A program made the position numbers and the translations under genes. This document shows, piece after piece, positions 8,376 to 62,711 of a stretch of 64,000 bases of DNA. The DNA is taken from positions 9,715 through 73,714 of IMG/VR virus record IMGVR_UViG_3300006990_000020; one strand, written 5' to 3'. The DNA is from a virus. Numbering within the stretch: position 1 is the stretch's first letter; each line of letters opens with the position of its first letter. Below the pieces are notes generated by a model. That model was not told where the DNA came from. It did no database searches and saw only the letters and a program-made list of their open reading frames with translations.

Positions 8376-11300
8376 TTAAAGTACCTCAAAGCTTATGTAA
8401 TAACTTATGCACAGGCTTTTATTAAGAGATCCAACGGGACTATTAAAAGAACCTAGTCCCATATCGATTATTTCGTTGCTGCTCGATCCTGTGTCTATAC
8501 TAATTAGGTCTCTGTTAACTACTATGTTAAAAACATCATATATGTTGTTTGGTATCATAGCTAAAATAAGATCTTGTTGTGACATGTCTCTGTCTAAGTC
8601 TTTTATAAACTTATGATAAAATTCATTATTTTTTAAAACTTTACTATTTCCTAGCGTTTGAGTGTATTCTTTGTCATTTTCAACAAAGTCATCACTTAAA
8701 ATATTTTCATCAATTTTTCCTATAGCATTTTTCAAGCTTTCAATATCAACTGAATTTAATAAGCTGATTGTTTCTTTATTTATTAAATTGTCTAATTTTT
8801 CTCCGTTTAATTTAATGTTCTCGTTTAAAGGAGACTGTGTGATAAAGTCTAGATGGCTTATAGCAGAAGAAATAATATTGTCATCATAAACACTTGAAGA
8901 TAACAAGCTAGTATTTGCGTTTAAAACTACTCGACCCTCTTCAGCGGCTAGACTAAAAATATCACTTAAAAGATTTTTAACTTCTGATATTGCGATATCC
9001 TTAGACACAACATTATACCTCTCAGATATTTTTTGTGTATCATTGTATATTCCGCAAAAGTCAAAAAAGTTACTAGATAAACTAGACATAAAATTACTTG
9101 TCAATCCTGTTAACATTGGAGTATAATACTTTGAGATAGACTTGTATTCAATTTCAGGATATTTTAAATTAACAGGTTGAATATTTATCTTCAAAAAACC
9201 TCTTGTACCGATTTTGTTTGCAATTTTAAAATCTATTGGTATTTTTAATATGTCTAGTAAACTATTCACTTCACTACTTGAATAATTTCCTATTAAGTTT
9301 AAACTTTGAAGTCCTCTGTTGTAGCTATTATTATAAAAAAGCTTTCTATGATTAAACATGTTTTCGTTTTCATATTTTTGTCTATTACTATTATAAAGGT
9401 TGTTTCTTATAAACGTTTCGTTAAAAATATTTTTATAAAACATTATTTCTTGAATATCCTTAGATAACTTGTTCTGATAGAACTCGTCAAATATATGGTC
9501 TTGTATATTAATTGAGCTTATTCCTTGAATACTATTTATTGTTTTGCTAATTTCTTCTATGTTTTTTTCGAGCTCTTTTTTGTTTTCTATCTCTAGAATT
9601 TTATTCGACTCTAGATTTGCAAAATAACCATGTATAATATCCAAACACAAAGATTCAGATATATCGCTGTTTTGCAGTATTTTATTTACTACTTGTAATT
9701 CAAAGAATCTTTTTGTGTGTATAACATCCCTATTGATAACCGCAGGAGAGTTTTGTAAAATAATATCGCTAGTTTGATATTCTGGATTTTCCAACTGTTC
9801 AGAATTTTGACTAAGTATTGACTTTATATCACTAACTACAAAAGAACGATTTTCTATGCTAGAATTCAAAATATTGTAGTCTTTAACAAAAAACCTGAAC
9901 TCGTCAATAGACATGTCTTTATTTATAGACTCTAGTCTTATTTTTTCTTCTGTATACGTATTGTAACTTTCAAAACTTTGTAAGTATATGATAGAAAAAA
10001 CTTCAAGAATATCTTGAGTTATTCTTGTCAAATAAGTATTGTTATCTATGAATTTAAATACTTCTTCAACGTTGTTTATATTGTCATATTTTATATCAAA
10101 AACAGATAACAAGTCTGTACAGATATCTGTTATTTTTCTAGAAAAGGTATTTCTTTTTGTTGAAAGATAAAAATAACTCATAGGTATATAGACAAATGAG
10201 TTGCGGTATGGGACTACAAGCTTTCCTAAGCCATCATTGTTCAAACCTCTAATATCACTTTTTAATACTCTTTTAAACAAATTATACGTTATTTTTAAAT
10301 CAATGCCTTTGTTTATTTCATCTTTTGCAAAGTTAAAGCCTTTTTTTGAGTAAGATGAGTCTTCTTCGCTTTTTTCGTAAAAAACAGTACCTGTTTCTTC
10401 TTCATTGATAAAAACATCGTAGTTGTATGACATGTTAGAACTAGCCTGGTACAGGTTTTCTCTTAACTCTCTTTTTTTATTGTTTATGTTGGCTTGACTA
10501 CTAAAGAAGTTGTCATTTATAGTCGAAGATTTTCTTATAGCACTGCCAGACACAGATTTAATTGCATCTTCTTTTTTTCCAAATTCTTTGACTACATAAT
10601 GTCCAGGAAAAACTAACTCACACATATTTCCGTCTACATAATCTAGACTTAAACCATTAATAGCATCTACAGAAGTTAAATTAAAAGATTTAATATTATT
10701 CATACTGTTAGTATGAACTGATCTGATGATCTTGTTGTTCATGCTGTAAATGTTTTCTTTATTGAATATCACGTTAACAAAGTTGTTAATAATTTCTTCA
10801 CCAAAAATTTTTCTTAAATCATCACTAATGTCTTTGTTTAATGTTTTACTACTTGATTTTCCTCCAAAACGAGAAGATGGCAATTTATATACAGACTTTA
10901 TTTGACTATCTATTCCACATGATTTAATGATTGAATTAGCTAGTATAATCTTACAAACATCTTTAACTTCGTTTGCATTGTTTCTATTTATACCAGAGAG
11001 TGATTTTGCTAATAAAACATCAAATCCAAAATAATTAGATATGTTTGAAAAGCTACGAGGATAATCGCTTTCTAATTCAAACATATCAATATTGTCGCTT
11101 AATATCCTGTTTAATAAAGTTGATTTACTTCTAACAAAAGACTTTGTATAAATTTTGGACAAATATTTTCTAAACTCTTTTGAAGTAAAAAGCTTATTGT
11201 CTTCAATGTCATTGTCTTTGTCAATAACTAACTTTGTCGTATTTTTATTTTCTGAGTTAAATTCTTCAACGAAGTTGTTCTTATAAAATCCTTTACTTGT

Positions 11301-55052: not shown

Positions 55053-55512
55053 AATTATCGTAATACGTAAACACTTCTTTTAAGTAGTCAGGTGTTTTAT
55101 TGAGAATGTTTTTTAAACTTAAAAATCTAAAACCTTTATGCTCTATAATTTTCGTCTTAGGATTAGGCTTTATAAAAATAGACTTATTTAAGAGGACTTC
55201 TACTTTTAAATTACCAAGAAAAGTCACCATTGATTGTCCAAAATGAGCATAATGATCGCTTATTTTAGTAAAGTCTGTGTACTCAAGACCAGATTCTTCG
55301 TAAGTCTCTCTGATTGCGCAGTTTAAAAATGTCTCACCTTCGTCTATTGTTCCTTTAGGAATATCATAAAGATTTTCATAGTCAATTAAACATAAAAATA
55401 ATATGTCACTTTCTAATTCATTAACAGAACTATTTCTATTGTCATAATAACATACAATACCAGACCCAGTAACGTTTTTTTCAAAACTCATAATATCTTC
55501 TTTCTCAATCAA
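55030..55512 (-). CDS. Nudix hydrolase
   Basis: Complete Nudix box GTIDEGETFLNCAIRETYEESGL, preceded by IPK. Confidence 0.92.
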   Translation of the reverse strand: MIEKEDIMSFEKNVTGSGIVCYYDNRNSSVNELESDILFLCLIDYENLYDIPKGTIDEGETFLNCAIRETYEESGLEYTDFTKISDHYAHFGQSMVTFLGNLKVEVLLNKSIFIKPNPKTKIIEHKGFRFLSLKNILNKTPDYLKEVFTYYDNFIREENV

Positions 55513-57140
55513 CTGTTGACTTCTTTATAACTATCATAGAAGTCATCCGGGAGTAGATTTCTAATTCGCGACTTTAACCTATTCCAGTCATTGTCAAGTA
55601 TATAAGTCACAGCAACGTCATCTTCAGATCTTATACTGCGACCTACACTTTGTATGATGGTTCTTACTGTTTGGGTGTTATACCACCAATCCCACTTGTT
55701 CATTTTCTTTTTTACGACTTTGTCACCTAAGTACGGGAAAGGAATTTTACATATGACCTGAAATCTTGAAAGGTCTCCTTTTAGGTCGACACCTTCAGAC
55801 ATTGAAGGCGACACAAGTATTGTTGGCTTATTAGAATTAATATGTTTTTTGAGCATTTCATCTCTATTATCTCCATAAGCAACAATGAACCTTTTTCTGT
55901 ATTTACTAGGAACGCTGTTGACAATTGCTTTAGCTATTTTAACGCTATGAGTATGTATAATGCCTTTATCATCTTTGTGATGGTCACATATCGATTCAAT
56001 CATCTTTGCCATAACAGGTAACGTTTGATCGATATTTTTAAAAGACATGCTTCCTGCAGGACAGAATATAATTGGTCTATTTTTTGCTGGGAAAGGTGAA
56101 GGTTCTTTTATTGAAACAATTTTATCATGTGGAAGTCCCATAGTTAAAGAAAAGCCTTCATGAGATATTATCGTTGCAGACATGAATATTACATAATCTG
56201 CATATTGCAATATATTTTCTTTAGCATATTTCGAAACGTCAATTGGTTTAAAGATGAATTTTTTATACTTTTTGTCTGTTTGTTCAATGTCAAAGACCCA
56301 GTTGTCGCTAGAGTAAAGAGATAAAAACTTCTTTATTTTTTCTTGATGTGAATTAAGCATATCATAGTGTTTTGTTATCTTTTGAAACTCACCTAGCTTT
56401 TGTGTCGATATTCCAAACTTTTCAAGTTGAACTTTTATAAAATTGCATTTACTTGTAACTGCAGCTAGATATTCATCTTTAATCCACTTAAATACTTGTC
56501 CTTGTGTGTTTAATGTCTGCGGAACTTTTTTCTTTAATATTTTCTCTGAAAAGAAGGTAGAAACACTAATCTCAATAAACCTTGTTAGTTCGTTTTCTAA
56601 GTTATGTGCCTCATCAATAACAAGAACTTTTTTATTAGGAACTTTTTGACTATAATTCTTTTCAGTTAAAAAATAACTAAAGTTTGTAATACCCAGGTCT
56701 TTTTCAATAAATGCTTTCTTTTTTATTTTATACTTACACTGGTATCCGCAACAATCAAACTTTTTAGGTAAACTTTTTGCCCTTAAAGCAGTTTGTACTT
56801 CTTTGCACGAAGTACTTTTATCAACAGAACAACTATAGTTACTCGAAGAATATAATGATACTAAGCCTGATTTAGAAGAAAAATCTTTTTCATATTGCTC
56901 CTGGAGAACTTTTTGTGTAGTTAAAAAGTAAGAACCATTGTCATATTGACCTGGGTATTCTGAGGAGTTGTTAATTGCTCGGGCGATTGTCAAACCTATA
57001 GCAGACTTTCCTACGCCCGTACCACAGTCAACAATAGCATATCTTTTACCGTTTTTAAACTCTTCAAGCACTTTATTGATAACGTTTGATTGAGCTTCTC
57101 TAGGAGATTCAAATGGGAAATAATTATTCCATGTATTCAT
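55509..57140 (-). CDS. DinG/XPD-family SF2 helicase
   Basis: Q-motif FPFESPREAQ, GTGVGKS, Cys cluster, DEAH, SAT, EGVDL, QSVGRSIRSEDD. Confidence 0.92.
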   Translation of the reverse strand: MNTWNNYFPFESPREAQSNVINKVLEEFKNGKRYAIVDCGTGVGKSAIGLTIARAINNSSEYPGQYDNGSYFLTTQKVLQEQYEKDFSSKSGLVSLYSSSNYSCSVDKSTSCKEVQTALRAKSLPKKFDCCGYQCKYKIKKKAFIEKDLGITNFSYFLTEKNYSQKVPNKKVLVIDEAHNLENELTRFIEISVSTFFSEKILKKKVPQTLNTQGQVFKWIKDEYLAAVTSKCNFIKVQLEKFGISTQKLGEFQKITKHYDMLNSHQEKIKKFLSLYSSDNWVFDIEQTDKKYKKFIFKPIDVSKYAKENILQYADYVIFMSATIISHEGFSLTMGLPHDKIVSIKEPSPFPAKNRPIIFCPAGSMSFKNIDQTLPVMAKMIESICDHHKDDKGIIHTHSVKIAKAIVNSVPSKYRKRFIVAYGDNRDEMLKKHINSNKPTILVSPSMSEGVDLKGDLSRFQVICKIPFPYLGDKVVKKKMNKWDWWYNTQTVRTIIQSVGRSIRSEDDVAVTYILDNDWNRLKSRIRNLLPDDFYDSYKEVNS

Positions 57141-57432: not shown

Positions 57433-57942
57433 TTAAAGATTCTGGACGTAGAGATTTAACTCAGCTTCAGTCTTAAAAGTGGTTGTAATTGTCTTGTTGT
57501 TTTCTAGTTCAATATAAAGGACATGACTGCCTGTGTAAGGATCAATTGTATTATCAATAGAAACTATTCCTTCATTTCCTCTAATTAGTACATCATCTTT
57601 TTGAATATTACCATATCCTCTCTTGAAAACAGATTGCCTATTTCTAGGGCCTACAGTTTCATTTATAATTTTTTTTTTATGAGACTTTATGATATTTTTT
57701 GCAACCTCATTGACATGATTTTCTCTAAAGTATCTGACGTCAGTTTTTTCCAAAAAGCTTAGAAGGATATTTTCAATTAAAGAAATTTCGCTTTTAACAA
57801 ACTTTATACTGTTTTCTTTTAACATTTTATTTAAGAAGACTTTTTCAATTGAGTCTAATTTTATTTGACATCTATCATAGTATAAATGATTGACATATGA
57901 ATTATTATTTATTTTCAATTTATTTTTTGCCCTTCTTGTCAT
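57433..57942 (-). CDS. Hypothetical protein
   Basis: Start moved to ATG 57942 (MTRRAK); several (I/L)xE motifs. Confidence 0.55.
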   Translation of the reverse strand: MTRRAKNKLKINNNSYVNHLYYDRCQIKLDSIEKVFLNKMLKENSIKFVKSEISLIENILLSFLEKTDVRYFRENHVNEVAKNIIKSHKKKIINETVGPRNRQSVFKRGYGNIQKDDVLIRGNEGIVSIDNTIDPYTGSHVLYIELENNKTITTTFKTEAELNLYVQNL

Positions 57943-58180
57943 CTCTATCAAGGATTTCAACAGCAGCACCGATATATTTGTCTAGGGCGGTTTGTCCTAG
58001 TATATATCCTATTTGAACAACACCCGAAGTCAGAATTACAGTTATTAAAAATGTCAATTCTTCAGGATCGAGCTTGCTTTGCAAGTGCATAAGCATATAA
58101 AAAATTACTGCCTTCCATCCAAGATCAGCAATTACATACGCAATAAATTTTTTACTTTTAATTGGCAACTTATCAGTCAT
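57920..58180 (-). CDS. Holin-like small 2-TM protein
   Basis: IKSKKFIAYV N-terminus, two hydrophobic helices, YILGQTALD and a basic C-terminal tail. Confidence 0.5.
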   Translation of the reverse strand: MTDKLPIKSKKFIAYVIADLGWKAVIFYMLMHLQSKLDPEELTFLITVILTSGVVQIGYILGQTALDKYIGAAVEILDRDDKKGKK

Positions 58181-58208
58181 AGAACTTCTCTCTTTGTTTA
58201 ACTAACAT

Positions 58209-58218
58209 AATAATTATT
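58209..58218. promoter_or_regulatory. Palindromic AATAATTATT, presenting the late-type core on both strands
   Basis: Perfect 10-bp palindrome midway between the divergent 58180(-) and 58246(+) starts. Confidence 0.45.
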
Positions 58219-58245
58219 TAATAGACAAACATTAATTAAAGAAAA

Positions 58246-59109
58246 GTGGTAAAAATGAGTGAGATGCCAGAAAACACGATTGAGTCTAATATTGCAGTTG
58301 TATTGACAGACATTATAAGCTCAACTAAATTTGTACAAAAGAATGGAGCCATTACAGCTGCTAAGTGGTTTGGTGTACATGATAAAGCTGTTATGAACTT
58401 TATTGCTAGACACAATGGCAGACTAGTAGATGCTAGTGACGGTCATCTTATGTATTTTGCTTCTGTTAGTGATGCTATAGCTTTTTCTTTTGACTATAAA
58501 AAATTTCTTAGAATTAAAAAATTTCCTTTTAAATCTAGAGTTGGAATTCATTGGGATAAAATGCTAATCATAAAGTCCCCTGAACATGTTGTAAGGGCCG
58601 GAGGTAAAAGAATAAACTTAGAAGGTATAGGAAAAAACATAGCAGCAAGAACTATGTCAATATGTGAAGAAAATCAGATACTGTTAAGTCACTCTGCTTA
58701 TATACAATATAAATCCAGAACAACGAGTAACAGGTTTATCCCAAAGGACGCTAAAATAGCTTTTGTAGGTCTGTACTCATTTAAAGGTGTAACAAAACCT
58801 GCGAGGGTTTATGCTGCAGGTGTAATGGAGTCGGACATACAGCCTCCTTCATCTAGTGAAAAAGCAAAAAGATTAGGTGGCAAAAAAAAAGTTAAAGTTA
58901 GACTTAGAAATAAAAAACTTAAAGAAATATTATGGTGGCTAATATACAAAATTTTTTGGATTAATCTAACGTATATAATCTTACTGTCTTGGAATTTTTT
59001 GTCAAATAGAGATGCTAAAATCTTGTGGGATGTAGACATGTATATATTAAGAGTATTTGAAGTGCTAGATTATATTTATAGATTCATAGAGAAGGTTGTG
59101 TTGAAATGA
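58246..59109 (+). CDS. Class III nucleotide (adenylate/guanylate) cyclase-family protein with a C-terminal membrane segment
   Basis: VLTDIISST, DASDG, RVGIH, GIGKNIAAR, QILLS, FKG; hydrophobic ILWWLIYKIFWINLTYIILLSW. Confidence 0.85.
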   Translation: MVKMSEMPENTIESNIAVVLTDIISSTKFVQKNGAITAAKWFGVHDKAVMNFIARHNGRLVDASDGHLMYFASVSDAIAFSFDYKKFLRIKKFPFKSRVGIHWDKMLIIKSPEHVVRAGGKRINLEGIGKNIAARTMSICEENQILLSHSAYIQYKSRTTSNRFIPKDAKIAFVGLYSFKGVTKPARVYAAGVMESDIQPPSSSEKAKRLGGKKKVKVRLRNKKLKEILWWLIYKIFWINLTYIILLSWNFLSNRDAKILWDVDMYILRVFEVLDYIYRFIEKVVLK

Positions 59110-60383
59110 CAAGTAATGAGAAAATTTTTATAGAACATAGTAATTTAATAAAAGAGTTTAAAGGTGTTATTATAGAAAATCAATTTTACGATGATTTTTT
59201 TATAGACGACTACAGATTAAATGAAGGAAAAGCCACAGAAGCTATTGTAGCAGCAGCGCTATTTTCAACAATTGCTTTGATTGGTTACTCTGGGAAAGAT
59301 ATGTCAAATTATGTTTCAAATAAATTTAAAGACACACTAACTAGTAGTCAAATCAATAAGTTAGAAAATGACATAGAAGAGTATAAAAAAAGAAGTGCAG
59401 ATGATGTTTTGATTTCTTTGTCAAAGGAAGTTGATAATCAGAAAGATGACATGGTTCTTAAAATTCTACAGAAAAGCAAAAGACTTGCTTTGAAATTTAA
59501 AGAAGTTCAAGAAAACGAGTATTTAAAGTCTGTTTTTGTATCTGAGCTTTTTCACTCGTCGCCAGGGTTAAAAAGAACAATAAGTAGTCATTCTAGAACT
59601 GCAAGGATCAATAATAAACAAAGGTGGATATTGTTTTATACACATGTTGTGAACAAATCTCCAAAAGATATAGAGAAAGGACTTAGCAGGGAAGAAAAAA
59701 AGGAGTGTACGAATCATAGTAAATGGAAGATATATTCAAAAATGATAACAAACATAAAAAGAAATTCGGACGGCACTCCTTTTTTTGTTTTAGAAGCTAG
59801 TCTTGCTAGACAAATTAAAAGAAAAAACGAGCTTGATATTAAAATTTTAGGCGAAAACAAAACTAGTTGGTGCACAGCGACGCTTGGTTATTTAGTAAGC
59901 GACTTTCTAGCTTTTGACAAAAAAGACCTAGAGTCAGGAAAGTCTACTGGATCGTCTTTTGGCAGTACACAAAAAATGTACAATAATTTTAAAAATAGTG
60001 AAGATTTAGTGTATAGCTATGAAAAGGCTATGAGTGCTAACTTAACCAACGATCAAAAATTTAAAAACATAAATTCTGTCATTAAAGTTGGAAGTTTAAT
60101 TACTTTGAAAGGGGCTAGTAATAAAGTCTTTGGTGGTCATGGCGCTTTTGTTATAAAGGTTAATAATGATAATACTTTTGAAACTGTGGAGGGTAACACT
60201 GGGGATAGATCTGTAGATGGTAGAGTTGCTGTTAAGACTAGAACTTTTGAAGAAATTAGAATGATTATAAATTTAAAAGAAATGTTTGGTCCCGCACCAA
60301 GTGCGATTAAAATAACAACATTACAAAATATTGATTTTGACATTGAAGATGCAAAAGGTCTACAAAGTGATGACAAAAAATAA
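59106..60383 (+). CDS. CHAP-domain amidase/peptidase with an N-terminal hydrophobic segment
   Basis: SWCTA...GHGAFV...FETVEGNT catalytic Cys/His pattern; ATGA overlap with the cyclase gene. Confidence 0.7.
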   Translation: MTSNEKIFIEHSNLIKEFKGVIIENQFYDDFFIDDYRLNEGKATEAIVAAALFSTIALIGYSGKDMSNYVSNKFKDTLTSSQINKLENDIEEYKKRSADDVLISLSKEVDNQKDDMVLKILQKSKRLALKFKEVQENEYLKSVFVSELFHSSPGLKRTISSHSRTARINNKQRWILFYTHVVNKSPKDIEKGLSREEKKECTNHSKWKIYSKMITNIKRNSDGTPFFVLEASLARQIKRKNELDIKILGENKTSWCTATLGYLVSDFLAFDKKDLESGKSTGSSFGSTQKMYNNFKNSEDLVYSYEKAMSANLTNDQKFKNINSVIKVGSLITLKGASNKVFGGHGAFVIKVNNDNTFETVEGNTGDRSVDGRVAVKTRTFEEIRMIINLKEMFGPAPSAIKITTLQNIDFDIEDAKGLQSDDKK

Positions 60384-60840
60384 ACAACTTACACAAATAG
60401 AAAAAGCAAAAAGAGGCTGGTGGGCATCAGTTGTCTTTATGCTGCTTATTGTAGCACTCATAATATTTTTAACTTACGTTAAAATCCAAGAAGAAAATCG
60501 TGACATCCTAATTGGTATTATTGGAATGTTAACAGGATCTATTTCGAGCATGTTGTCAATTGCTGCAGGAAAAGACCCCGCTGAAATTGATGAGTTAAAA
60601 GACAAGTTATCAACAGCAAACGCAGATCGAGCGTCCCTTATTGCTAGATTAAGAGACGCTCAAATACAAATCCAATTAAAGACAGATCAGTTGAGCGACA
60701 TCCAGACAGCTTTAATTGAAAAAATGCCTATTTGGAATGGTAAAAAAGTAGTAAAACATAGGTCCGAAGCTGATGTTGTGTTAAATAAACATGTTGAGGA
60801 TTGGCTTCCTGATGTAGACAGAGAAGATAAAATAGATTAA
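60370..60840 (+). CDS. 2-TM membrane protein with a C-terminal coiled coil
   Basis: WWASVVFMLLIVALIIFLTYV and DILIGIIGMLTGSISSMLSI helices followed by a heptad-rich segment; ATG 60370 overlaps the end of the CHAP gene. Confidence 0.65.
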   Translation: MTKNKQLTQIEKAKRGWWASVVFMLLIVALIIFLTYVKIQEENRDILIGIIGMLTGSISSMLSIAAGKDPAEIDELKDKLSTANADRASLIARLRDAQIQIQLKTDQLSDIQTALIEKMPIWNGKKVVKHRSEADVVLNKHVEDWLPDVDREDKID

Positions 60841-60877: not shown

Positions 60878-61561
60878 TTACTTTGGAAGAAAAACTCTAG
60901 CAGTTGATCCTCCATAATGATGAGTCATTTGACTGGTTATATGGTCGCTTGCTTCTTGTCCATTACCCAATGAGACTGAAATGTGGCCACTAACACTACT
61001 CCCTTTTCCCCATACAACTACAGCACCAACAGGTAATCTATTGATCTCTCTATCCCATACTTCAAAGAAATGAAAAGAGCTAGATAATTGGTCTGCTGCC
61101 TGGTAAGCATGTGATCCCCAAAGAAAAGGCCCAGTAACACTTTCAACTGCATCAGCTACAGCATTATAACACCAGCCAACTGTTCCTCTTCTTGATGCTT
61201 CAAGATAAGCAGCATTAGATATTCTTCGACCTTTATCTGAATCATAGATGTTAGATGTGTTACCTGGAGATAAATCACTTTCTTGATAACTAAAATTATC
61301 GTTAGTCTGTGTTGATTCTTCTAGTAAACATGAAGAGTATATGTTGCCTTCTTCTACACAATGACATCCTTCACCATCACAATAATGAGTAAGGCTTTGT
61401 GCACCGGAGTTTACTGCCCAAGCACTCCAAATACAACCATCAGAACACTGTCGACCTAAAAGAGAATATCCATTCTTCTCTTGTATATTGTTTTCGCCAT
61501 AATATTCAGTATCTGAACATCCGAAAATAAAAATCAGTCCAATAAAAAAAATATTCTTCAT
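60878..61561 (-). CDS. Lipoprotein with a C-terminal papain-like (CHAP/NlpC-type) domain
   Basis: Lipobox IFIFG-C, Cys-rich N-domain, GWCYNAV...LPVGAVVVW...SGHISV...ASDH. Confidence 0.65.
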   Translation of the reverse strand: MKNIFFIGLIFIFGCSDTEYYGENNIQEKNGYSLLGRQCSDGCIWSAWAVNSGAQSLTHYCDGEGCHCVEEGNIYSSCLLEESTQTNDNFSYQESDLSPGNTSNIYDSDKGRRISNAAYLEASRRGTVGWCYNAVADAVESVTGPFLWGSHAYQAADQLSSSFHFFEVWDREINRLPVGAVVVWGKGSSVSGHISVSLGNGQEASDHITSQMTHHYGGSTARVFLPK

Positions 61562-61583
61562 TTTCAATAGCCTTTCTAGCTTT

Positions 61584-61892
61584 TTAGTTATTTTCCCACC
61601 ACAAATCTAAAGCACCATAATCAATTAGTTCATATAAGTCATCTGGTAAATTTCCTATACAACTATAATCAAACCACTCACCTTCAAGCCTAAATTCTTT
61701 TAACCTTTCATGAAGAAATCCTTCTCGCCATCCTTGGCCCTCAAAAGACTTGATCAATCTAAGTTTATTTGGATTACCAGTTTGAAGCTGTTTTAATCTT
61801 TTTTGTGGATGCCTTGATCTACCTATCTTTATCATTCCAGTTAAATCTGACTGTATTAGGTATAATTTGTCATTATCTTTTTTCTGTCCCAT
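61584..61892 (-). CDS. GIY-YIG superfamily protein (T5orf172/MUG113-like)
   Basis: LYLIQ...IKIGRS..PQKRLKQLQTGNP...E..LH...GEWF; start ATG 61892 after AGGA. Confidence 0.85.
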   Translation of the reverse strand: MGQKKDNDKLYLIQSDLTGMIKIGRSRHPQKRLKQLQTGNPNKLRLIKSFEGQGWREGFLHERLKEFRLEGEWFDYSCIGNLPDDLYELIDYGALDLWWENN

Positions 61893-61943
61893 AATATTCC
61901 TATAATTAGTCTTTGAATATATTATATACTGAAAGGATAAAAC

Positions 61944-62711
61944 ATGCAAAGACTTCTTTATATATTTTTTACAACTCTTTTGACAACATCAATTTTTCAA
62001 ATAAAAAAAGTTAACTCTCAAGTCAATATTGAAGATATGCGAAACAAAAATAACTCTGAGATAAGTTTCGGTGCAAATCTAAATATTGGTAATAATAATG
62101 TAACAACTGTTGACATATCGACATTAGTCTTAAGAAGGTTATATAAAAGAAATTTTCTTATATTAAAAGCTAATTACAATAAAGGATTCAAAGACAGTAA
62201 AGACTTTATTGATAATTATTTTGGTCATATAAGATTAACATCGATGGTAACAAAAAGAATTGGTTTTGAGCTGTTTTCACAAGCTGAAGGTGATGATTTT
62301 AAGGCTCTTTATTTAAGACAGTTAAATGGAATCGGTATAAGGCTAGAAGTTTACCAGAAAAAAACGCTTAACATTAACCTAGGTCTAGGAATAATGTCTG
62401 ATTATGAAAAAGTCAGAGCCAGAAATTCTTTGTCTAATTTAGTAGTTATTAGAAGTACTTCTTATCTAAGCTTTATGAAAAGATTTAAAGACAGTAAAAA
62501 TAAAATAGTTTTAACATCATATGTTCAGCCGACTGTAATAAACCCATCTGATATAAGACTAACTGTAGAATTCTTAATAAGATTAAGGATCAGTGATGAT
62601 TTTAGTATATATATAGACAATTCAGCTAGTTATCGGTATGATTCTAGACCACCTATAGATATTGGTTTGAATGATTTCATTACAAAAAGTGTTTTAACGT
62701 ATGAATGGTAG
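61944..62711 (+). CDS. DUF481-like outer-membrane beta-barrel protein
   Basis: Signal peptide then QVNIE, amphipathic beta-strands, YRYDSRPP and a terminal LTYEW beta-signal; TATAATTAG motif at 61901. Confidence 0.7.
   Translation: MQRLLYIFFTTLLTTSIFQIKKVNSQVNIEDMRNKNNSEISFGANLNIGNNNVTTVDISTLVLRRLYKRNFLILKANYNKGFKDSKDFIDNYFGHIRLTSMVTKRIGFELFSQAEGDDFKALYLRQLNGIGIRLEVYQKKTLNINLGLGIMSDYEKVRARNSLSNLVVIRSTSYLSFMKRFKDSKNKIVLTSYVQPTVINPSDIRLTVEFLIRLRISDDFSIYIDNSASYRYDSRPPIDIGLNDFITKSVLTYEW

Follow-up and report, generated by a model that had tools for sequence, protein, structure and literature searches.

Why would a large phage encode a nucleotide cyclase anchored in the membrane, and place close to it a gene for a small protein with two transmembrane (2-TM) segments? 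The question is raised by positions 58246-60840 of a 64,000-nucleotide stretch of the IMG/VR virus record IMGVR_UViG_3300006990_000020, called here the window. An earlier note, made from the sequence, had described at this place three overlapping plus-strand genes, for a membrane-anchored cyclase, a CHAP hydrolase and a 2-TM/coiled-coil protein, and had proposed them as a single candidate signalling, lysis-control or anti-competitor system. The overlapping trio is real: the open reading frames (ORFs) and both overlaps were verified in the sequence, the cyclase and CHAP genes sharing gttgaaATGAcaagt (ATGA) at 59106-59109 and the CHAP and 2-TM genes sharing 14 bp (60370-60383), from the ATG at 60370 to the TAA that ends at 60383. 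However, the conserved unit is very likely a two-gene cassette of about 1.3 kb without inserts, consisting of a class III cyclase with a C-terminal TM anchor and of the 2-TM/coiled-coil partner. The conserved and linked third gene is not the CHAP gene but one that the note had missed, encoding an 86-aa 2-TM protein upstream. The features of the locus are the following.

57920-58180, minus strand: small 86-aa 2-TM protein of holin-like shape with a charged C-terminal tail; divergent from the cyclase
58181-58245, no strand: divergent intergenic region of 65 bp between the 86-aa gene and the cyclase
58246-59109, plus strand: cyclase, 287 aa; class III cyclase-homology domain and C-terminal TM anchor
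59106-60383, plus strand: CHAP-like cysteine peptidase/amidase, 425 aa; lineage-specific insert overlapping both flanking genes
60370-60840, plus strand: 2-TM/coiled-coil partner, 156 aa; an alternative start at 60331 would give 169 aa

For the last gene, the ATG at 60370 is most likely the start, since a length of 156 aa fits that of the homologues.

Linkage and distribution of the cyclase and its membrane partner

The cyclase and the 2-TM gene stay together in relatives, as the earlier note had supposed. Among 31 IMG/VR loci recovered with the cyclase, 30 carry the partner gene. Starting independently from the partner, 319 viral contigs matched, 80 were fetched and 70 distinct partners were left after deduplication; a cyclase is present in the locus of every one of them (70/70). 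For the 57 distinct partners with at least 4.5 kb of upstream sequence, the cyclase lies directly upstream on the same strand in 50 cases, and the remaining seven carry inserts of 1.35-3.9 kb between the two genes. In relatives, start/stop overlaps or short gaps join the cyclase and partner genes, which suggests that the two are co-translated. The pair adjoins a helicase gene in 20 of the 31 cyclase-anchored loci and has different neighbourhoods in the rest. The genomes that carry it measure 137-376 kb, and some of them are complete, with terminal repeats; the cyclase, the partner and the 86-aa protein are conserved about as well as the neighbouring helicase (55-75% identity between relatives).

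The source of the window is of the same kind. The window makes up most of a 73.7-kb virus record of about 30% G+C, for which CheckV estimates a completeness of 29%; long genes on the minus strand of the record encode a baseplate wedge subunit, tail-fibre-like proteins and PhoH. Since the nearest, albeit distant, relatives of a 1301-aa protein and of the helicase encoded at 55509-57140 belong to jumbo or huge phages (phage G, XacN1, LR756500-508), the source can be taken as an uncultured marine large (jumbo-type) phage. The cyclase locus lies near the right end of the record, at a switch of gene orientation.

The cassette is abundant and restricted to viruses. The partner family comprises at least 1608 clusters at 90% identity, and the nearest Atlas clusters of the partner are 100% viral. 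The cyclase and partner peptide patterns that found the 31 and 319 viral contigs gave no match in 185,579 species-representative genomes; these patterns are short, near-identical and family-specific, so that the scan rules out close cellular relatives and not distant ones. None of 50,697 GenBank phage records contains a homologue of the cyclase, the partner or the 86-aa gene, so that a cultured model was not found. In the literature on phage-encoded adenylate or nucleotide cyclases and on TIGR04510 we found no published description of the cassette; all that came up was a report on another cyclase, of pelagiphages (PMC9599517), which is considered below. What is new here is thus a phage-encoded cyclase with a membrane partner, abundant and undescribed in the literature searched. 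To this the analysis of the window adds the CHAP gene as a hot-spot insert, the 86-aa third gene with its SLT link in one clade, a split at residue 124 of the cyclase, and a single viral clade in which a cyclase-homology domain is followed by a TM helix (CHD-TM).

The CHAP protein, which the earlier note had counted as part of the system, has, after about 40 N-terminal residues, a hydrophobic segment (43-61) with much Ala, Ser and Gly; a helical region follows, and the C-terminal half is CHAP-like. PF05257 matches it with an E-value of 2.2e-4 and 22.1 bits, against a cut-off of 26 bits, with just the C-terminal half of the profile covered; Cys256, His345, Glu362 and Asn364 are invariant in four sequences (the window and three relatives). 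The hydrophobic segment could be a signal-anchor or signal-arrest-release (SAR)-like element, or the protein could be a processed virion component. Only four protein clusters of this CHAP were found among 5.8 billion proteins, the three relatives standing at about 75% identity; it is absent from five related genomes (two complete, three partial) and from the IMG/VR loci, including all 31 cyclase-anchored ones. Inserts, often on the opposite strand, occur at the cyclase-partner junction in other phages as well (L005, L006, L007, L008/9, L021, L023 and L024, besides the nearest relative, L193), and those of the other phages match no Pfam family. Because unrelated ORFs occupy the same site in other lineages and CHAP is missing from relatives, the junction is best read as an insertion hot spot and CHAP as recent lineage-specific cargo rather than a core part.

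It could nevertheless be argued that cyclase, CHAP and 2-TM protein act together, the nucleotide timing wall hydrolysis by CHAP. In the window phage, CHAP is embedded in the operon by its overlaps on both sides and the three genes are probably co-transcribed; in L193, a metagenome contig, CHAP also follows the cyclase directly, with a 4-bp overlap; and the hydrophobic N-terminal segment would suit such a role. Yet in L193 two paralogous minus-strand genes (193 and 206 aa) separate CHAP from the 2-TM gene, and seven other lineages have unrelated ORFs at that site. This separation, together with the rarity of the gene and its absence from relatives and from IMG/VR loci, rules out CHAP as a core member, and leaves concerted action of the three products very improbable.

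The third gene that does accompany the pair is that of the 86-aa protein, whose TM segments span residues 12-30 and 42-62 and whose alignment shows P6, S9, K10, K11 and F12, and further on G58, L61 and G62, to be invariant. A homologue is present in 31 of 31 cyclase-anchored loci. Its gene may be divergent upstream of the pair, upstream on the same strand, or downstream; no more than 6 kb separates it from the pair in the case of 35 out of 57 distinct partners and, where it is not adjacent, the pair is found 10-160 kb away in the same genome (4/4 long contigs). In one clade, represented by the four distinct loci L026, L028 (from G003, a complete genome of 161.8 kb), L029 and L030, cyclase and partner are followed in turn by some small ORFs, the 86-aa gene, a 70-aa ORF and an SLT lytic transglycosylase gene (E 2.6e-13), which lies 0.45-2 kb downstream of the 86-aa gene. 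Endolysin adjacency as a general feature was rejected, as it holds in this clade alone; the CHAP and NlpC/P60-like genes that flank the cassette in the window are lineage-specific. The cassette and the 86-aa gene share with the holin/antiholin timing systems (T4 T, RI and RIII; pinholins) the use of small phage-only membrane proteins, and the 86-aa protein resembles holins in its two TM segments, its charged C-terminus and, in that one clade, its position upstream of a muramidase-like SLT gene. It differs from those systems in having no family match and, in the window's clade, no adjacent SLT gene. We know of no lysis system that contains a nucleotide cyclase.

The cyclase domain and its relatives

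The cyclase is made up of a cyclase-homology domain (residues ~11-200), a basic linker (QPP..SEKAKRLGGKKK), a TM segment at ~228-250 and a tail of about 35 aa. In an AlphaFold2 (AF2) model, built from 17 homologues with a predicted local distance difference test (pLDDT) score of 77, residues 11-198 take up the cyclase-homology fold; residues 213-247 then form one long helix, in which the hydrophobic segment (228-247) is included. With this model as a query, the top Foldseek matches are all class III cyclases (186 at E <= 0.001), the best being Ma1120 and Rv1900c (E 2e-12, TM-score on target 0.82-0.84). The fold match and the C-terminal helix therefore bear out the membrane-anchored class III domain described by the earlier note. 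The profile searches that the note had called for gave a divided answer: the resemblance to the N-terminal domain of TIGR04510, which it had pointed out, is real and is the best family match (E 3.1e-31, 108.7 bits, profile positions 7-204), whereas PF00211 stays below its cut-off and the PycC models of PADLOC give marginal scores (E 0.0027-0.011, 13-15 bits).

The residue register was set by HMM/profile alignment to the solved catalytic domains of the mycobacterial class III adenylyl cyclases Ma1120 (PDB 4WP9, 5D0E) and Rv1900c/LipJ (PDB 1YBT, 1YBU), which have the same fold and match the phage sequence with E-values of 5e-8 to 6e-6 at 20-24% identity. Their metal-binding Asp pair and Arg align with those of the phage enzyme, in which D22 and D65 are the metal-ligand sites, and N131 and R135 make up the transition-state pair; Rv1900c carries a His at the N131 site. 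The canonical base-selecting pair (Lys/Asp for ATP, Glu/Cys for GTP) is replaced by Asp62 and Asn124. D62 aligns with the base-selecting Lys of Ma1120 and Asn of Rv1900c, which needs a one-residue deletion just before the second metal Asp, and N124 aligns with the base-selecting Asp of Rv1900c; the lack of the canonical first-site Lys is common to Rv1900c and the phage cyclase. Both the catalytic set and the non-canonical base-selecting sites that the earlier note had picked out from the sequence are thus recovered by alignment to solved structures. Apart from these substitutions, the phage enzyme differs from Ma1120 and Rv1900c in being tail-anchored by one TM helix, encoded by a phage and always accompanied by a 2-TM partner.

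Among 76 distinct viral homologues, with identity to the window cyclase as low as 25%, D22, D62, D65, K121, K130, R135 and K180 are invariant, the phosphate-binding Lys being one of them, and N131 is retained in 72. Residue 124 is N in 25 sequences, E in 46, S in three and A in two, a variation that sets subfamilies apart. The catalytic residues are under purifying selection despite identity down to 25%. The pattern is that expected of an active enzyme with an unusual, perhaps subfamily-specific, substrate pocket, but does not prove activity. To judge from these residues, the cyclase looks able to make a cyclic-nucleotide signal.

Where does such a domain come from? A HMMER scan of 1.84 billion representatives returned 1349 relatives of the cyclase domain, 613 of them below 1e-10, and bacterial homologues at about 33% identity are plentiful. 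Most relatives either form the N-terminal domain of bacterial proteins of 800-1400 aa or continue, after the cyclase domain, into a TM helix and then some 200 aa of periplasmic domain. They have in common with the phage protein the motifs D(I/L)xxST, (I/V)Dxx(S/T)DG, GIH, GAK..E.EG, AAR.MS, KG(V/I) and, in terminal position, PP..SEKA(K/R)R, a set by which the N-terminus of TIGR04510 is defined as well. In most sampled bacterial members of this clade the Asn131 site is occupied by another residue, most often Pro (also His, Ala or Ser), and position 124 is Glu. A midpoint-rooted FastTree phylogeny of the domain unites the 76 viral sequences in a single clade (support 0.985), to which only 11 other representatives belong. 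These 11, which come from outside IMG/VR, are all short (197-291 aa), and most of those that are full-length have a hydrophobic tail; the long bacterial forms are placed outside this viral/short CHD-TM clade.

The clade of the "putative peptide modification system cyclase" (TIGR04510), in which the N-terminal cyclase domain is joined either to STAND/TPR regions or to a TM helix with a periplasmic domain behind it, has both motifs and, in some bacterial members, the order of cyclase domain and TM helix in common with the phage protein. Nevertheless, the phage cyclase does not count as a TIGR04510 member, because it reaches 108.7 of the 400 bits required by the family (full length ~814 aa). Some 600 C-terminal residues are missing from it, it keeps Asn131, and the viral proteins form a clade of their own. 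No genes for ribosomally synthesized and post-translationally modified peptides (RiPPs) lie nearby, as the earlier note had remarked: the neighbours of the cassette in the window are helicase, Nudix, small membrane, T5orf172 and DUF481 genes, and no peptide-modification neighbourhood is seen.

The membrane partner, its proposed output and rival explanations

The partner begins with a basic N-terminus, followed by a very hydrophobic TM1, a loop with the sequence ENRD (NRD invariant) and a Gly/Ser-rich TM2 in which G49, G52 and G56 are invariant. After TM2 the chain makes a DP.E turn and continues as a strongly conserved helix (DR..LI.RLRD.QIQ.QL) some 50 residues long, in which many Arg, Asp and Gln positions are invariant; the C-terminal tail has W145 and P147 (W.P). 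By the positive-inside rule, both termini would be cytoplasmic. A reading of the partner as one half of a two-component spanin was discarded, a lipobox ORF being present within 1.5 kb downstream in just 3 of 71 distinct loci.

From catalysis and product to the partner's role and a link with lysis, the scheme that we infer for these proteins is as follows. The cyclase, a tail-anchored class III enzyme, would probably work as a homodimer whose catalytic domains face the cytoplasm, and would make a cyclic mononucleotide at the membrane during infection. The 2-TM partner, translated from the next gene, would either receive the signal through its conserved cytoplasmic helix or control the cyclase. 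The output could be an altered permeability or integrity of the membrane, by which the phage would time lysis or keep out superinfection. The holin-like 86-aa protein belongs to the same genomes and is often encoded next to the pair. As a whole, the reading of the cassette as a phage-only inner-membrane signalling device with a partner-coupled membrane or lysis output has in our estimate a probability of about 0.5. For its last part, an output on membrane permeability, on lysis timing or in exclusion, the chance is put at roughly one in three.

Several observations weigh against this reading. PF00211 matches the cyclase with an E-value of 0.096 and 12.7 bits, below the Pfam gathering cut-off of 21.9 bits, and the domain is too divergent for that Pfam model; residue 124, a base-selecting position, differs between subfamilies (N, E, S or A). 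AF2 modelled the partner with low confidence (pLDDT 65, predicted TM-score (pTM) 0.27), too low for a fold search, and neither the window partner nor 24 homologues contain a domain that binds cyclic nucleoside monophosphates (cNMPs; PF00027) or a match to another nucleotide-binding family. The 86-aa protein matches no Pfam or PHROG family and no holin family. In the clade of the window, SLT-like genes turned up at a great distance or not at all, and no muralytic gene stays consistently near the module. Promoter scans of the 65-bp divergent region were uninformative: the exact candidate late motif AATAHTTAG is absent from it, a single copy with one mismatch (AATAATTAT) being present, and sigma-70-like sites occur at chance level. 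Finally, in the 316-kb contig G006 (behind L143; 114143-116370) the cyclase has one in-frame TAA and the partner gene, at a distance of about 1 kb, is encoded on the other strand. This contig is the sole exception to the same-strand rule, and its arrangement could reflect a decaying copy, a sequencing error or recoding.

The cyclase could instead serve to reprogramme the host, in the manner of an auxiliary metabolic gene (AMG), by raising cAMP or cGMP and so redirecting host regulation; the 2-TM protein would then be a regulator or dimerization scaffold and have no role in lysis. In canonical membrane cyclases, the TM region and a coiled coil regulate the catalytic domain, which fits such a role, and the closest solved relatives of the phage enzyme are adenylyl cyclases. 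There is a possible precedent in an adenylate cyclase reported as a putative regulator in the curli (type VIII secretion system, T8SS) gene clusters of pelagiphages; its neighbours are genes for CsgG, CsgF, FecR and histidine kinases, and it falls into a group with alphaproteobacterial versions (PMC9599517). This is the only published phage-encoded adenylate cyclase that we found; it too comes from uncultured marine phages, and it was compared with the window cyclase by gene context alone. The context is not the same: CsgG is absent from the window's record and from five related genomes, which rules out a curli setting of the published kind. In addition, the adenine-selecting Lys/Asp pair is missing (D62/N124), and an obligate phage-only partner with a Gly-zipper-like TM2 exceeds the needs of a plain anchor. 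We regard host reprogramming as unlikely.

A phage-borne conflict system would also account for a cyclase beside a membrane protein, the 2-TM protein being in that case an effector that kills or arrests the cell on sensing a competing phage or a host counter-measure, and so excludes competitors, as in Pycsar, CBASS or Panoptes. Pycsar and Panoptes both place a nucleotide synthase beside a small TM effector, and Panoptes, as outlined in PMC12657218 and PMC12657230, combines mCpol with a 2TM-beta effector that the nucleotide holds off. Pycsar (PycC with PycTM or PycTIR), to which the earlier note had likened the locus, has in common with it a class III-type cyclase beside a small TM protein and base-selecting residues of a non-purine-like kind, and weak PycC matches (E 0.003) point the same way. 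Yet the cNMP-binding domain that defines the Pycsar effector was not found in the 2-TM protein, and here the cyclase itself is membrane-anchored. The cassette is thus not a Pycsar system: the partner lacks that domain, the similarity to PycC is marginal and the genes are not bacterial. The 2-TM and SLATT effectors of Panoptes and CBASS offer a similar likeness, with differences on both sides of the pair: the synthase is there of the Palm or CD-NTase type and here of class III, and the partner here has a coiled coil and is not beta-rich or SAVED-containing. SLATT_fungal (PF18142) does match 12 of 24 partner homologues weakly (best E 0.0046), and the SLATT profile NF033635 matches the partner with E 0.026; such scores (0.005-0.03) are far below threshold. 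Because they sit on the TM segments and unrelated AbrB matches are more frequent (16/24), composition bias is the likely cause. Family scans found no SAVED or CARF domain in the partner, for which PADLOC gave no match. Absence from the cellular genomes scanned and a conservation like that of the helicase are, moreover, unlike typical shuffled defence cargo. A conflict system is, in our judgement, quite unlikely.

The cyclase might also be catalytically dead, a pseudo-enzyme or a nucleotide sensor in a structural membrane complex. The replacement of the transition-state Asn in the wider bacterial clade, usually by Pro, His, Ala or Ser, the sub-threshold PF00211 score and a loop of the model (113-128) with pLDDT below 50 could be taken in this sense. 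However, the viral clade keeps the metal Asp pair, Arg135, Lys180 and, with four exceptions, Asn131 at the level of divergence described above, and a dead scaffold is the least probable of the readings weighed here, below even the three-gene unit.

What would a signalling cassette of this kind mean for the phage? To our knowledge, cyclic-nucleotide signalling in the conflict between phages and bacteria has so far been a weapon of the host (CBASS, Pycsar, type III CRISPR, Panoptes), and phages only degrade or sponge the signal. A very abundant, phage-restricted pair suggests that phages themselves synthesize a second messenger at the membrane. Likewise, for uncultured marine jumbo-type phages we know of no described holin or lysis clock; a pair that controlled lysis or superinfection would fill that gap and provide a new fold of cNMP receptor and possibly a new nucleotide. 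A more specific proposal, which we hold tentatively, is that large lytic marine phages make a cNMP messenger of their own at the inner membrane of the host, possibly a non-purine or otherwise unusual product, and use it, by way of a new helical receptor in the 2-TM partner, as a clock or switch that permeabilizes the membrane, for lysis timing or for lysis inhibition upon superinfection. The virus itself would then encode a cNMP signalling pathway, and its receptor would be of a type not known before. A logic like that of Panoptes, in which a constitutively made nucleotide holds a 2-TM effector off, would make a simple lysis clock, by way of analogy and not of evidence.

Neighbouring genes

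Other genes near the cassette deserve mention in their own right. Convergent with the 2-TM gene, 60878-61567 (minus strand) encodes a 229-aa predicted lipoprotein (lipobox IFGC, Cys17) whose N-terminal half is rich in Cys and whose C-terminal half (GWC133YNA ... SGH195ISV) resembles NlpC/P60 or CHAP. Its single family match, TIGR02594, is weak (E 0.022), and a homologue adjoins the 86-aa gene in L012. In L028, the locus from the complete genome mentioned above, a 73-aa predicted lipoprotein with an AAFGC lipobox is encoded right after the 2-TM gene (9384-9605, plus strand).

Just downstream in the window lie two divergent genes, one for a T5orf172/MUG113-domain protein (61584-61949, minus strand; E 4e-11) and the other for a protein of the DUF481 outer-membrane beta-barrel type (61944-62711, plus strand; E 3e-17), which recur near the cassette in 8-11 related loci. 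On the other side, about 50 bp at the 3' end of the 86-aa gene are shared with a 178-aa ORF on the minus strand (57433-57969). This ORF is weakly conserved, at 27-38% identity, in some relatives, and searches of Pfam, PHROG and Atlas gave no match to it. An hmmsearch (E <= 10) found in the window no copy of a Cys-rich mini-protein of about 60-90 aa (C.LC..C.C..C.C..C.WP..C.C..C..C.C), whose gene immediately precedes that of the cyclase in no fewer than 27 of 98 distinct relatives, among them L010-L012, L015, L017, L018, L020, L021, L024, L002 and L013.

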